64,000 nt of DNA from Eledone cirrhosa (Eukaryota), in contig OZ024753.1 in NCBI GenBank assembly GCA_964016885.1, forward strand, positions 31,558,001 through 31,622,000, given 5' to 3'. Positions 3,937 through 57,425 of this stretch are shown piece by piece. The notes under the pieces are model-generated. The model made no database searches, was not told the origin of the DNA, and saw only the letters and a program-made list of their open reading frames with translations. Position numbers and translations under genes: made by a program. The first letter of the stretch is position 1. Every line of letters begins with the position of its first letter.

Positions 3937-4007
3937 TATTTTATCTGACGAAAACGCAAATGTCATCGCATGATGATATTTGTTTTTGAAATGCGCAAAA
4001 TAAAATA
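3937..4007 (+). ncRNA. Type I hammerhead ribozyme, degenerate cleavage site
   Basis: Stem I tattttat/ataaaata; CTGACGA; stem II gcaaatgtcatc-gcat-gatgatatttgt; GAAA; palindromic tgcgca; AA in place of UH. A short inverted repeat flanks it (3849-3870 vs 4025-4047). Confidence 0.7.
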
Positions 4008-4839
4008 CATGGAACTCTTTTAATCATCTTTTGATCTTATATATTATAATACACATATATATATATATACACACACACATATACATATATATACACACAC
4101 ACACACACACACACACACACACACACACACACACACACACACACACACACAGACACACAGACACACAGACACACACACACACACACATACATATATATAT
4201 ATATATATATATATATATATATACACACACACACATATGTATACACATATATATATATATATCTATGAGAGAAGTCATATATATATGTGTTTGTGTGTGT
4301 ATGTATGTGTGTATGCATGTATGTATTTATGATTATACGTAAAAAACTAAACAAGGAAAGATAACAGGGAAACAAGGCCAAACAATATTGATATAACACT
4401 TGATATAGTTGGAGCAATAGCATATAAGTCATATATCGTAAGGTAGAATGAGAGAAAGAAGAAGGAATATAAAGATCACCTGATCTCAACTGGGATCTGA
4501 ATGAAGGAATTCGTCATCATAATTATATCGTATGAAAGAAATATTAATTAATGTTTTCAAATTGATGAAAATTTCAAAGAAATTTAAATTTAAAGGTAAC
4601 TATCTGAGATATTCAAAAGATAAATACAGTATGAAAATAAAGATTTACACTAAAACACATTCATATCAGCGACATTATTGTAATGCACATACAGACAGAG
4701 AATAATTTGACATTTGGGGTTAAAACGTCTATGAAATTAGGTTAAGAAATGAAAAGAATAAGATATGAAAAACATTAGAACGATATGTGCTTACATACAT
4801 ATATACATACATACATATATACATACATACGTGCATATA

Positions 4840-5420
4840 TGGTGGCTGCCAACTCGTTTTCGAGTACGGCCACTACTTTATATCCATGTAGGAGAACTCC
4901 CACCGATGCGCTGAACGAGTGTGACCCCTTAGTCCAGCCAGCTACTTGAAAACTTTGGTATAAACACTACACCTGTGACAAATATTGACACACAGTGCTG
5001 GGCCCACGATACGATGTGACGACAAGGGCAGAGAGATCTCCAGATATAAAGCAATGTCTGTGCCGTGAAGCTTTTATAGTGAGCAAAGGCACTGCACAAA
5101 GCCAGTCCCACTCTCTTAACTAAGATGATATTTACCAAAAAGAAGAACAAGTCAACATCATTGGATACCATCAGAGTTGCAGGTGTTATATCAGAGTTTT
5201 CCTTCTCCTAGAATTCTGCCTTGACAAAGGGTAAGGGGTCATCTCTCCCAGTGATTTTGGTAACATGTATCCCAGTACAACCTGTCTCATGGTAGGGTCG
5301 TTGTCGACTAGACTGGCAACGCCACCAAGGTTTCTTGGTGAGGAGGGTGACTTTGGACATCCTGCAGGACTAAAAACAAAACCTGTCAAAGGGCAAAGGA
5401 GCTCTTAAGAGTCAATGACA
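4840..5420. mobile_element. ~580-bp dispersed non-coding repeat, copy 1 (RTE 5'UTR-like, tentative)
   Basis: Highly similar to 40772-41380 and 51952-52523; all begin ggtggctgccaactc next to an AT-rich microsatellite. Confidence 0.8.
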
Positions 5421-8400
5421 TGCATATATACATACATAAAAACATATATACATACATACGTGCATGCATGCATCCATGAATGAATGTATGAATGCATGCA
5501 TACATACATATATGCATAAATGCGTACATGCATACATACACACATACATTAATGCATCCAGTTTGTTTGGAAGAGTAAATTTTCTAATCAACTATCAACA
5601 TTTATAAATCTTTATAGTCTTATCTACTGGATGAAGTGCTGATGTCATCCGTCGTAGTCTCTTTATAGTAGGCAAGGACAGTATCAGTGATATAGACAGT
5701 CTTTACCGTTGGTTAGACTCGTATGCCATCTGTCAGCTGTTTATTTTTCTATGTTGCTAGCGTATGTTGACTTTGGAATTGTTTTTATTAAAATATGGAT
5801 AAAAAATACGTGATAAAAACGATACCACAAAAAGCAGTCATTTTTTTACTACAAATGTTGCGCTATAAATATAAAACAGCAAAGCAATAAAAAGTATTTC
5901 GGAGCAAATTTCACAGGATATTGATTGATATGGAGAAATAACTGAGAATATAGTAAATGTATAGTCAGACATACTACAGCCATAGAAACATTTTGTCTGA
6001 AAAAAAAATGTCTGAAAAAATATCAGTTCCTCAATGATTATACAGTGTGTGTATATATATATATATTTATATATATATATATATATATGTGTGTGTGTAT
6101 GTATACACACACAGATATATAAATATACACATATGTATATATAGAGACATTTATATATGTATATATATATATATATATATATATATATATATAGAGAGAG
6201 AGAGAGAGAGAGAGAGAGAGAGAGAGACATATATATATATAGAGAGAGAGAGACATATATATATATATATATATAGAGAGAGAGAGAGACATATATATAT
6301 ATATATAGAGAGAGAGAGAGACATATATATATATATATAGAGAGAGAGAGAGAGAGACATATATATATATAGAGAGAGAGACACATATATATATATTATG
6401 TATGTATATATAGAGAGACATATATATGTATGTACGTATATATAGAGACACACATATATATATATATGTGTATATATATATATATATATATATATATGTA
6501 CACATATCGTGTGCATATGAATATTGTTTAATCTAATTAAGTATGGCTGTTTCTATGTGTGTGGTGGGGATATGTGTGGGTGGATGTTTATCTCTGGGCT
6601 TGATGTGGTCATGTAATCTACCAATTAGAGATATCTTTAATTATAACTATCTTTCACAACTCTTCGATATTCGAAAATAAATTCTAATTTAAAAAACCCA
6701 CGCTGTAACTTAGCAACAGTGTCTGATGTTATTAGCTTTAAATTAAGGTTAAAACCCTCGTGAATAAAAATATATAACATCGCCCTTCCTCCCACAAACA
6801 AACACTCAATTTTCTATGCATACTCTCTCTCTTTCGCTTACTCTGTCTCTCTTCCTCACTTTTATCTGGCTATATATATATATATGTCCTCTCTCTCTTT
6901 TTATTTCTATTTCAATCATCTCCTCTATCTCTCCATCTGTGCGTATATATATATATATATATATTTATATATATAGATATATATTGTTATACATTGGGAG
7001 AGTCATGCTGCCAATAAAAACACACGCACATGTTGATTTTATTTATTATAAATTTCCGGTTGGTTGGTTTGATCACCGGATAGTTGTTTATATATTGTTA
7101 AAGTTCTTTCGTCACATATTCTGTGACCTCCTAAGTCGCTGGGTTTTTATTTTGTCTCTCTTTTGTTCGGTCCTACATCACCTTGTTTGTCACATATACA
7201 TATTAATGCTTAGATACACGCCTGTGCGTATGTGTGTGTTTGTATAGACAGCATATCAGAATTGTTAAGAAGCTCGCTTCGCAATTATATAGTGGTAGTT
7301 TCCATCACACACGGTGGTATATTGAGCCAATATTATTTTCCATAGACTGAGGTCCACTAAACACATTTCAGTGAAAGTGAGTTCAAAGAAACTGGTGCGA
7401 TGTTCTTCGGTTAGACTGACTGCATACTTACTTCAAATGTCAAACCTCGTCATAGACCTTGTCACGCTGAAAATTGCATTAAGGAAAAAAAGAACCGGCT
7501 TTTTCTTTGTTCATACTAGATTATTCATTGTTAAAGCCAACAGAGGGTAATTACTTTCAATTCAATTTATATATATATATATATATATATACATACATAA
7601 TGTCTGTGTGGGTATGCGAAAAGTCAACTTGGATAAAGAACACAGGAGACGATACATTACGATATATTAGATTAACGCATGATAAAGTCAGAAAACTGTC
7701 TTATAGCTTCGCATGTACCGCTTCTATATATATATGCGTCTGAATTCTAGGTTGGCAAATATTAACAGTTTTTCGTGTCACGAACTCTCGGATATATTAG
7801 TAGTGGTATCACTTGTAGCTGACTCAATTATATACCATACTATGCAAGTAAGCAGCGCAAGTATATGAAAAACACGAATACGTACAGCCAAATTCCAGGA
7901 CTGTTTTTTTGTAAATAATTCTTTATAGATAGAAATAGTGTCAATGTGGGGAACTTCTGTCCGTGTTGGCGTTGCCTATCATCGAATTCTTACATACTTC
8001 TTTGCTTACAAGGAAATACACAACTAGTAGCATTACAAGGTCATCAAATAAATTGTGCCAGCCAACATCCAGCTAGTTAATTCTATAAATATATTTTGTA
8101 ATGAAACAATTCTAGCATTCTTCGTATTTTGAAAATAACCTCTATATACTAATTAATTCACCGCTGTATCGTCCTTTATACACACATGTGCATATGTACA
8201 CATACATATACTACACACTCATATATATATATATATATATATATATATATATACAACTGAAAATATACACACCTGAATTCATACGCCTGATATAGGGGTT
8301 GCCTCCCACGTGGGGTCAGCAATAGTCAGTCCTTGTATTGACATTGAACTAAAACCTGTTGAGAAAGTGGCTTCCTTGTTCAATCATCTTACCAGAAGCC

Positions 8401-8443
8401 TGACATTATTTGTGTAAGCGGATGGTACTTGATTTAGGAGCCG

Positions 8444-56085: not shown

Positions 56086-56226
56086 TTCAGATAGAGAGGA
56101 ATTCATTAGATTGAGTGATCTCCTACTGAATGATGCTGTGACTAGGTTGTAATATTCAGATAGAGAGGAATTCATTTGATTGAATGATCTCCTACTGAAT
56201 GATGCTGTGACTAAGCTGTAATATTT
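56086..56226. repeat. ~70-bp tandem duplication
   Basis: ttcagatagagaggaattcatt..gctgtgacta..tgtaatat occurs twice. Confidence 0.85.
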
Positions 56227-56607
56227 GACCAGGTAAGGGTGGTAGATTATCAGAATAATTATCTTTCTTTTTATGTGGCCATAAACTCGCAGGGTGCTGT
56301 TGTGACATACAGCATTTCTTGGGTAGTTTTAAAACCTGATGGAAAAACAGAAGGAGAGAGAGGGAGCGTGATAGAGAGTGAGTGGGAAAGATATAGAGAA
56401 AGAATCGAACTCAGTACTGCACTGGTACTTTTTTTAACGATTTCGAAAGAATAAAAAGCAAAGTTGACCTCTTGCTCTGCATAATATGTTGTCAACAACT
56501 TGTCTCCTTTTTACACATTTCGTTTGCCCTGTTTTCAACTCTTACATCATAAATGTTTGCTCCCCTGTCATTTTGTCTCATCCTTAACTATATATATATA
56601 TATATAT

Positions 56608-56752
56608 ATATAATGTTTAATATAGACATGGCTTCTACAGGACTAGAACTGTTTCATTCGAAGGAAATCATCAGGAAAGCTTTCCTGATGATTTCCTACA
56701 AATGAAACAGTTCTAGTCCTGTAGAAGCCATTTCAATATTAAACATTATATA
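56608..56752. ncRNA. Palindrome carrying two divergent hammerheads (minus 56631-56678, plus 56681-56727)
   Basis: Centre gaaagctttc. Each arm: UUUC CUGAUGA uuucc..aau GAA ACAG uucuaguc CUGU A/ GAAG. Stem II is weak. Confidence 0.75.
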
Positions 56753-56907
56753 CTCTAGTATGTATTAAGTACCTCACTTACAGTGGTTACCTCCGATTGA
56801 ACCCAGAATACACACAGACATACACACACACACACACACATACATATATATATATGCGTATATATGTCTATATATATATATGTATGTATATGTATATATA
56901 TATATAT

Positions 56908-57425
56908 ATATGAAAGACGTAAATAAGAAAGTTATGAAAATTGACTTACTAAAATTTCACTCCAACTAAAATTAGTTTCTGTAAGGGGATAAATATGGTT
57001 ACGGAGTGTACCCATAGAGAAGCCTTACGTCACCAGGGAGTCTATTCCCCAGCTAAGCTTCCAGGCAATGCGGGGACACTGGGAACTTATATAAAAATAA
57101 TTCAGTGGATGGAAAAAAGCGAGCGGGGCTAGATTCCAAGACATTCTTTTGAATTTGCCACTTGACCAAGTAGGCAGTGAATTTTCAATGTCTTGGAATC
57201 TAGCCCCGCTCGCTTTTTTCCATCCACTGAATTATTTTTATATAAGTTCCCAGTGTCCCCGCATTGCCTGGAAGCTTAGCTGAGAATAGACTCCCTGATG
57301 ACGTAAGGCTTCTCTATGGGTACACTCCGTAACCATATTTATCCCCTTACAGAAACTAATTAGTTGGAGTGAAATTTTAGTAAGTAAGTCAATTTTCATA
57401 ACTTTCTTATTTACGTCTTTCATAT
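56908..57425. mobile_element. Fold-back element with ~240-bp arms, each arm carrying an HHR
   Basis: 56908-57147 is the reverse complement of 57186-57425. Confidence 0.88.
57290..57370 (+). ncRNA. Type I hammerhead ribozyme (the mirror copy 56959-57041 on minus has CUGGUGA)
   Basis: ACUCC CUGAUGA c guaagg..uaugg..ccaua..ccuuac a GAAA CUAAUUAG UU/ GGAGU. Confidence 0.88.

Follow-up and report, generated by a model that had tools for sequence, protein, structure and literature searches.

Hammerhead ribozyme motifs in the genome of Eledone cirrhosa: a dispersed population linked to Hydra-type Penelope-like elements and a large family with an altered core

The genome of Eledone cirrhosa contains a 64-kb stretch (contig OZ024753.1, positions 31,558,001 to 31,622,000; "the window" is this whole stretch) in which sequences with the layout of the hammerhead ribozyme are so numerous that the locus raises three questions: whether the motifs are real, whether the locus is peculiar in having them, and which element has left them there. 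An earlier note, made from the letters alone, had reported ~18 motifs at exceptional density and had ascribed them to a very large population of Penelope-like elements (PLEs) and retrozymes. The window is 30% GC with much (TA)n. It was searched with a type I descriptor consisting of the CTGANGA, GAAA and UH core with at least 4 pairs in stem I and 3 in stem II; in its strict form positions 10.1 and 11.1 at the base of stem II are paired, and the relaxed form also tolerates mismatched 10.1-11.1 bases or one additional base at position 9a. Strict type I hammerheads number five (18121, 18587, 19053, 19519 and 20143), and the relaxed descriptor yields eight by adding 24012 (A.C), 56632 (U.U) and 57290 (C.A). 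All eight join the CUGANGA/GAAA/UH core to a type I arrangement of stems I-III, a combination lacking from 15699, 23662 and the decayed copies. Among 120 block-wise dinucleotide shuffles of the window there were no strict hits and a mean of 0.02-0.03 relaxed hits, at most one per shuffle; the similar count in shuffled DNA that the earlier note had named as refuting its claim was not seen.

High hammerhead density is a property of the genome, of which the window is typical. The sample comprised 119 stretches of 10 kb taken at round coordinates on 27 contigs (1.19 Mb), plus 20 from C13, the chromosome of the window. With the relaxed descriptor 101 motifs were found in the 119 stretches as compared with 1 and 1 in two shuffles, i.e. 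85 per Mb (bootstrap 58-115), which extrapolates to ~250,000 intact-core motifs (170,000-345,000) in the 3.0-Gb assembly, the sample not being exactly size-weighted. The distribution is 57 motifs in 77 stretches of four large chromosomes, 44 in 42 stretches of the others and 18 in the 20 of C13, and the 127 hits of sample, C13 and window together fall into 29 sequence clusters (Chao estimate ~40). Of the 101 sampled motifs, 59 have a (TA)5 tract in the 150 nt downstream and 19 have one upstream, compared to 8.4% of background positions. A further count with a U3-A8 descriptor (21 real versus 2 and 8 shuffled) was set aside, being inflated by 11 hits from one microsatellite. As predicted structures the window motifs are genuine type I hammerheads of a known kind and far above chance, and the very large population proposed at the outset is borne out. 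The ~18 motifs first noted correspond to about 13 insertions of 10-11 families.

The probable source of the motifs is indicated by three relics of open reading frames (ORFs) for a reverse transcriptase (RT) and a GIY-YIG endonuclease that lie in the window and, compared by eye, carry the Hydra-clade features of Craig et al. A single ORF with RT and C-terminal GIY-YIG is recognized by motif and similarity, though not by Pfam. The Hydra signatures DKT, CxCX5C, CxxC and CxH, with no CCHH, appear in the ORF of a complete element at locus L340 as SDKT, CNCRNRADC, CDLC and CKH; where RWK would lie L340 reads LCWRAF, and the window ORFs are truncated before that place. Insertion in (TA)n and a hammerhead near the 3' end are found as well, both being documented for Hydra elements (PMC8557442). 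Hydra-type matches occur in 18 of the 119 sampled stretches and make up 1.7% of their bases. Three window families are linked to such ORFs: the 39765 motif lies upstream of RT of the 1614-3581 family in L022, L028 and L030; 8 of 15 loci have endonuclease or RT sequence next to the 42490 motif; and the same is seen for the altered-core motif of the 23662 family in 15 of 60 loci, with an unbroken alignment from endonuclease to motif in 5.

Very probably, then, the motifs are the 3' ends of Hydra-type PLEs and of their non-coding derivatives, such as a 466-bp retrozyme, that have piled up through truncated and folded-back insertions into TA repeats. By analogy with the element PAc (PMC11167929), the GIY-YIG domain would nick both strands of AT-rich DNA such as TA repeats, the RT would prime internally, at two sites immediately 3' of the hammerhead, on RNA left mostly uncleaved, and islands of 100-400 nt that each retain a hammerhead would result from 5' truncation or fold-back; retrozymes would be copied by those enzymes too, probably from RNA circles. 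The observations under this scheme are the motifs, their genome-wide density, their (TA)n adjacency, the RT/GIY-YIG links of three families and, for the 23662 family, a pair of fixed 3' ends, which match the two-start-site "tail" of PAc (PMC11167929). If insertions start just downstream of the hammerhead and are usually truncated or folded back, motif density would therefore measure the number of insertions and not local selection for ribozymes.

Several observations weigh against these assignments. Pfam made no RT call on the ORFs and found GIY-YIG only at E 0.062, and searches of Pfam, NCBIfam and PDB put no name on them; the clade assignment comes from motifs read by eye and not from an RT tree. 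In the loci fetched there is no ORF tie for the 24012, 36624, 3937, 20143, 19777, 56631 and 57290 families, and because of this we can only infer the element that drives them. A minimum free energy (MFE) z-score better than -2 relative to shuffles was obtained for only 3 of 12 motifs, and the hammerhead fold sits 0.4-4.8 kcal/mol above the MFE; MFE folding was mostly uninformative. An Rfam search of the window gave no match at gathering score; the HH9 model matched four 466-bp array copies below that score (E 2.5e-6 to 1.4e-5). The motifs are known here from DNA, and not from cleavage, transcripts or circles.

A more specific question concerns cleavage itself. Two window families depart from U at core position 4, having A in the 23662 family (U4A, or A4, CAGAAGA) and C in the 42490 family (U4C), and are by layout hammerhead-like and not canonical type I members. 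The "near-intact" core once read at 23662 does not stand: the + strand CTGAAGA at 23662/23664 arises at a fold-back junction, where CTGAA is the complement of the TTCAG of the other arm. In the relatives the sequence is AGTTT CAGAAGA T CCC loop GGG T GAAA GCA loop TGC TT AAACT; the type I layout is complete, distal stem I has 9 bp, and Rfam does not recognise the motif. A genome pattern with position 4 left free gave 26,766 matches, 26,439 with A4 and 327 with a mix of T, G and C that look like post-insertion changes, as compared with 0 for the reversed control; among full copies not chosen on position 4, A4 is present in 22 of 22. No variant at position 4 reached 5% in contigs of runs from two organisms, and the contigs of the second carry the A4 motif with no listed change there; a further run showed nothing over the A4 stretch, which counts neither for nor against expression. 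In the 42490 family C4 is found in 18 of 18 aligned copies and in 95 of the 100 matches listed of 218. Two similar copies with full stems and a CGGAAGA (U4G) core (L224:8846-8965 and L251:3130-3249) may represent a third family-fixed change at this position.

The U4A family is young and autonomous. Its motif lies ~915 nt past the stop codon of a Hydra-type ORF, of which 131 scored copies show 96-100% identity and many have open frames of 713 aa. The complete element L340 is made up of an inverted arm, an intact 713-aa ORF and a 3' untranslated region (UTR) with A4 motifs only; scanned with one core mismatch permitted, it showed no further hammerhead-like motif of its own. New here are the junction origin of the canonical core at 23662 and a U4A master core as the sole hammerhead-like motif of a young autonomous PLE with an intact ORF. 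Of 30 copies, 20 stop ~29 nt past the cleavage site and 9 reach a long end (~120-130 nt). A canonical-core ancestor was sought in L311, which reads CTGATGA, and was rejected; this core too lies at a fold-back junction and the subfamily of L311 is A4. An older subfamily, with ~80% identity to the young reference and a difference at N7, is still A4: it has 283 matches, with A4 in 94 of the 100 listed, and A4 is found in 20/20 old and 30/30 young copies. Of the majority differences between old and young, 7 are in loops and none is in the 38 free stem and core positions (P 3e-4), in a structure drawn from the same sequences and with old copies hand-picked by loop 2 and their core letters set by the search pattern; without the two loop-2 selection sites the figures are 5 and 0 (P ~1.4e-3 by hand). 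There is no compensatory pair change between old and young A4 copies. Confinement of change to the loops suggests, without proving, selection on the fold.

The U4A motif may be an active core variant that has not been described before, or else a fold that does not cut and is kept for some other use; the changed catalytic base would likely slow or stop cutting. To the second alternative, a catalytically dead ribozyme whose fold is kept as a protein binding or priming signal or by inertia, we give a little less than an even chance. It is favored by retention of sequence past the predicted cleavage site in all fetched copies that reach the 3' end (30/30), by the complete element without a second hammerhead, and by PAc, for which cleavage is dispensable in vitro (PMC11167929). 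However, downstream sequence is also kept in families with canonical cores, and U16.1-H17 and stem III are identical between the subfamilies.

The first alternative, an active hammerhead with a new natural core (CAGAnGA), slow or assisted by protein, for which cleavage still matters, is a serious possibility that nonetheless falls short of even, a small remainder being left for other readings. It is favored by A4 in old and young copies alike and by the loop-confined differences, as well as by two known cases: natural U4C stays adequate in vivo (PMC3088659), and the PAc hammerhead requires its own protein (PMC11167929). Against it, every single mutant of the CUGA turn had low activity in a saturation scan of a type III construct (PMC9901934), the motif has in addition a U.U stem II base and a stem II of just 3 bp, no compensatory change is seen, and the core letters of the old set were predetermined. 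The stronger proposal, that a major autonomous family uses a working hammerhead with CAGA in place of the CUGA uridine turn that is supposed to be fixed, preserved over two or more waves of amplification, with rescue probably by the long stem I or the element's own protein, is offered tentatively and appears rather doubtful; if true, CUGANGA descriptors miss such cores and animal hammerhead counts are underestimated.

For spread, fast self-cleavage is probably unneeded, because the U4A family, which encodes an intact RT of its own and has retained the hammerhead fold, has reached >26,000 copies. In PAc, cleavage is protein-assisted and yet dispensable, and hammerhead mutants leave insertion in vitro unaffected (PMC11167929). 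What the hammerhead does in PLEs is debated: Craig et al. (PMC8557442) ask whether it merely parasitises them, and Frangieh et al. found that insertion in vitro can do without cleavage. The U4A family offers a natural test of the need for cleavage that would be informative with either outcome: in the absence of cutting, the >26,000 insertions demonstrate that elements can do without cleavage in vivo and still keep the fold, and if the motif cuts, there is a new natural core unforeseen by structural rules.

It is very improbable that the window is a local hotspot in which hammerheads have been selected or concentrated, e.g. for processing of host introns. Eight motifs do exceed the 5.4 expected in 64 kb, and a possible, weak receptor exon lies at 61879-62214; but the bootstrap P(>=8) is 0.26, four of the eight relaxed motifs are units of a single 466-bp array, the C13 samples resemble the genome, and the motifs lie on both strands. 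The statistics of the 119 stretches reject a hotspot, and the density noted earlier is real and far above shuffles without being exceptional for this genome. Chance matching in AT-rich, palindrome-rich DNA is of negligible probability, holding for the single items 23662 (a junction product) and 15699 but refuted for the motif set by the shuffle results, by the multi-copy families, and by shuffling of the final 170 nt of the A4 element, which in 3000 trials never yielded a motif with one core mismatch or fewer.

The base of stem II is variable. Among the 101 sampled motifs the 10.1-11.1 state is G-C in 22, A-U in 37, U.U in 22 and U-A in 8. U10.1.U11.1 is fixed in the 56631 family (75/80 copies) and C10.1.A11.1 in the 57290 family (60/62), the copies having been picked by similarity to the window; the latter family shows one compensatory stem change, in L038. 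Such pairs were considered as a novelty and rejected: the mismatches (U.U, C.A) have been published before, many Hydra hammerheads in File S2 of PMC8557442 having U.U, which is tolerated and tested active (PMC3088659). A recurrent C.C mismatch, a few pairs inside stem II, is seen in the 39765 family, 12835 and clusters F0, F6 and F14. Multi-copy families with a compensated U3-A8 core (TTGATAA) and G10.1-C11.1, a known variant found outside the window, are present at L079, L184, L219 and L245.

The features of the window are collected in Table 1. Among the eleven cores first listed as intact, 18121, 18587, 19053, 19519 and 20143 hold in the strict and 24012, 56631 and 57290 in the relaxed sense, and three need correction: 39765 has an intact core with an irregular stem II base common to its family, in 19777 the stem II base is out of register, and in 56681 stem II is reduced to 2 bp. 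As to those called near-intact, 3937, 12835, 48162 and 56959 have decayed, most of their relatives having the canonical base (for 12835, a single relative); 36624 is a minimal motif with a 2-bp stem I, identical in 15 of 19 aligned copies; and 15699 must be dropped for the reasons in the table. One hammerhead, that at 42489-42608 with its CCGATGA core, had been overlooked.

Table 1. Positions of hammerhead motifs and element remnants in the 64-kb window
Feature	Position	Strand	Basis or remark
5'-truncated Hydra-type PLE ORF, young family	1614..3581	-	RT GLYRDD, CxCX5C linker, C-terminal GIY-YIG, CxxC, CxH, by eye
Decayed type I hammerhead (U16.1 to A)	3937..4007	+	U16.1 in 13/14 displayed rows (19 aligned), the exception being the 3937 copy itself
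Decayed hammerhead, cleavage triplet lost, kin of 19777 family	12835..12886	-	Comparison with single relative
Claimed motif, unsupported	15699..15780	-	A6G and competing hairpin in 6/6 relatives
466-bp x 3.8 non-LTR (long terminal repeat) retrozyme array, palindromic minimal stem III	17826..19595	-	Four intact hammerheads
Array hammerheads	18121-18165, 18587-18631, 19053-19097, 19519-19563	-	Strict descriptor
Hammerhead, intact core, irregular stem II base	19777..19850	-	Family comparison
Intact type I hammerhead	20143..20188	-	Strict descriptor
Two-armed 3' stub of autonomous Hydra-type U4A family (CAGAAGA master core)	23510..23733	.	Copies, genome pattern
Intact-core hammerhead, A10.1.C11.1, long stem II	24012..24099	-	Descriptor; no relative among fetched loci
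Endonuclease half of second Hydra-type ORF	29240..30013	+	No hammerhead seen before N gap
Minimal hammerhead, extra A9a, 2-bp stem I	36622..36660	+	Young family, no Hydra RT link
Two-armed stub of 1614-3581 family	39577..40113	.	Holds long-stem-II hammerhead 39765-39919 (-)
Hammerhead, family-fixed U4C core (CCGATGA)	42489..42608	-	~380 nt downstream of Hydra-type ORF
Third Hydra-type RT/GIY-YIG relic, frameshifted	42984..44340	-	ORF similarity and motifs
Decayed copy of 56631 family, two core changes	48162..48210	-	Relatives compared
Fold-back hammerhead pair	56631..56731	.	56632-56678 (-), 56681-56731 (+); family-fixed U10.1.U11.1
Two-armed insertion	56959..57370	.	Decayed arm 56959-57041 (-, A6G), intact-core arm 57290-57370 (+), family-fixed C10.1.A11.1

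By definition the 466-bp array is a predicted non-LTR retrozyme: its units are non-coding, repeat in tandem, measure a few hundred bp, contain a single type I hammerhead apiece and are dispersed; the unit has 16 matches on 8 contigs and forms tandem and inverted arrays at other loci. The 1614-3581 family has 131 scored copies at 96-100% identity. In the window the 3' UTR of this ORF (660-1614) is a degenerate 135-bp tandem in which no hammerhead was seen, and the element looks 3'-disrupted. The 3' region of the second ORF is directly followed by a 200-N assembly gap (31120-31320), in or beyond which its hammerhead may lie. At 32461-32600 (+) a (TA)n-flanked multi-copy element (16 aligned copies) keeps CTGATGA with GAAA before it and has several crossing complementary segments (GTCC/GGAC, CCAACC/GGTTGG). 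Part of the window (~36500-57400) recurs inverted at 99-100% identity ~0.6 Mb off (G000:C13:32217000-32240000), as either a recent segmental duplication or an assembly duplicate. The short frame at 61879-62214 (+) has a weak ANF_receptor match (E 5e-4, below cut-off) and may be an exon of a gene resembling that for a receptor guanylyl cyclase, in which case part of the window would be intronic.

The class of PLE and retrozyme hammerheads has already been published (PMC4209133, PMC8557442, PMC7229834). A literature search on octopus hammerhead ribozymes found no census among the papers listed, and the words "ribozyme" and "hammerhead" are absent from the main text of an octopus repeat annotation (PMC13282606). 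The minimal hammerheads of PLE pseudo-LTRs (PMC4209133) are alike in their short palindromic stem III, in the extra base at 9a of some families, and in being mostly solitary or in inverted pairs from truncated elements; however, G10.1-C11.1 is described there as highly conserved and is found in 22 of 101 motifs here, and the numbers given there are 2,000-9,000 per genome. Animal non-LTR retrozymes (PMC7229834; bioRxiv 10.64898/2026.07.22.740005) share with the 466-bp array a non-coding tandem unit, one type I hammerhead in each and location on many chromosomes, the present array being known from DNA and not as circular RNA or by cleavage. In the axolotl up to 120,000 retrozyme copies are reported, as compared with the extrapolated ~250,000 here, which counts all motifs. 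Sm-alpha of Schistosoma mansoni, with ~38,500 hammerhead candidates, is one SINE-like (short interspersed element) family (PMC2770079), unlike the ~30-40 families here. The density of ~85 per Mb is a result of scale for a known class, the absolute count being perhaps the largest among the published counts compared. Per Mb it has precedent, because the ~38,500 candidates lie in a far smaller genome, which we take to be ~0.4 Gb.

Close as well are the Hydra-clade PLEs with C-terminal endonuclease, including Hydra-1_Obim (PMC8557442), which have the same single ORF and signatures, insert into (TA)n and carry a type I hammerhead close to the 3' end, many with U10.1.U11.1. The present genome differs in having far more families and copies, stems II of up to ~130 nt, and family-fixed U4A and U4C cores that are absent from File S2 of that work. 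Other changes have natural precedent, U4C (known from a viroid), U3-A8 and U10.1.U11.1 all being active (PMC3088659). A natural U4A was not found in the literature searched, including PMC7151607, PMC6155905 and PMC10085705, though figures and supplements of PMC3088659, PMC4209133 and PMC7229834 could hold one. It does not occur in the main text of PMC3088659, whereas the present family, with >26,000 copies, has it as its master state.

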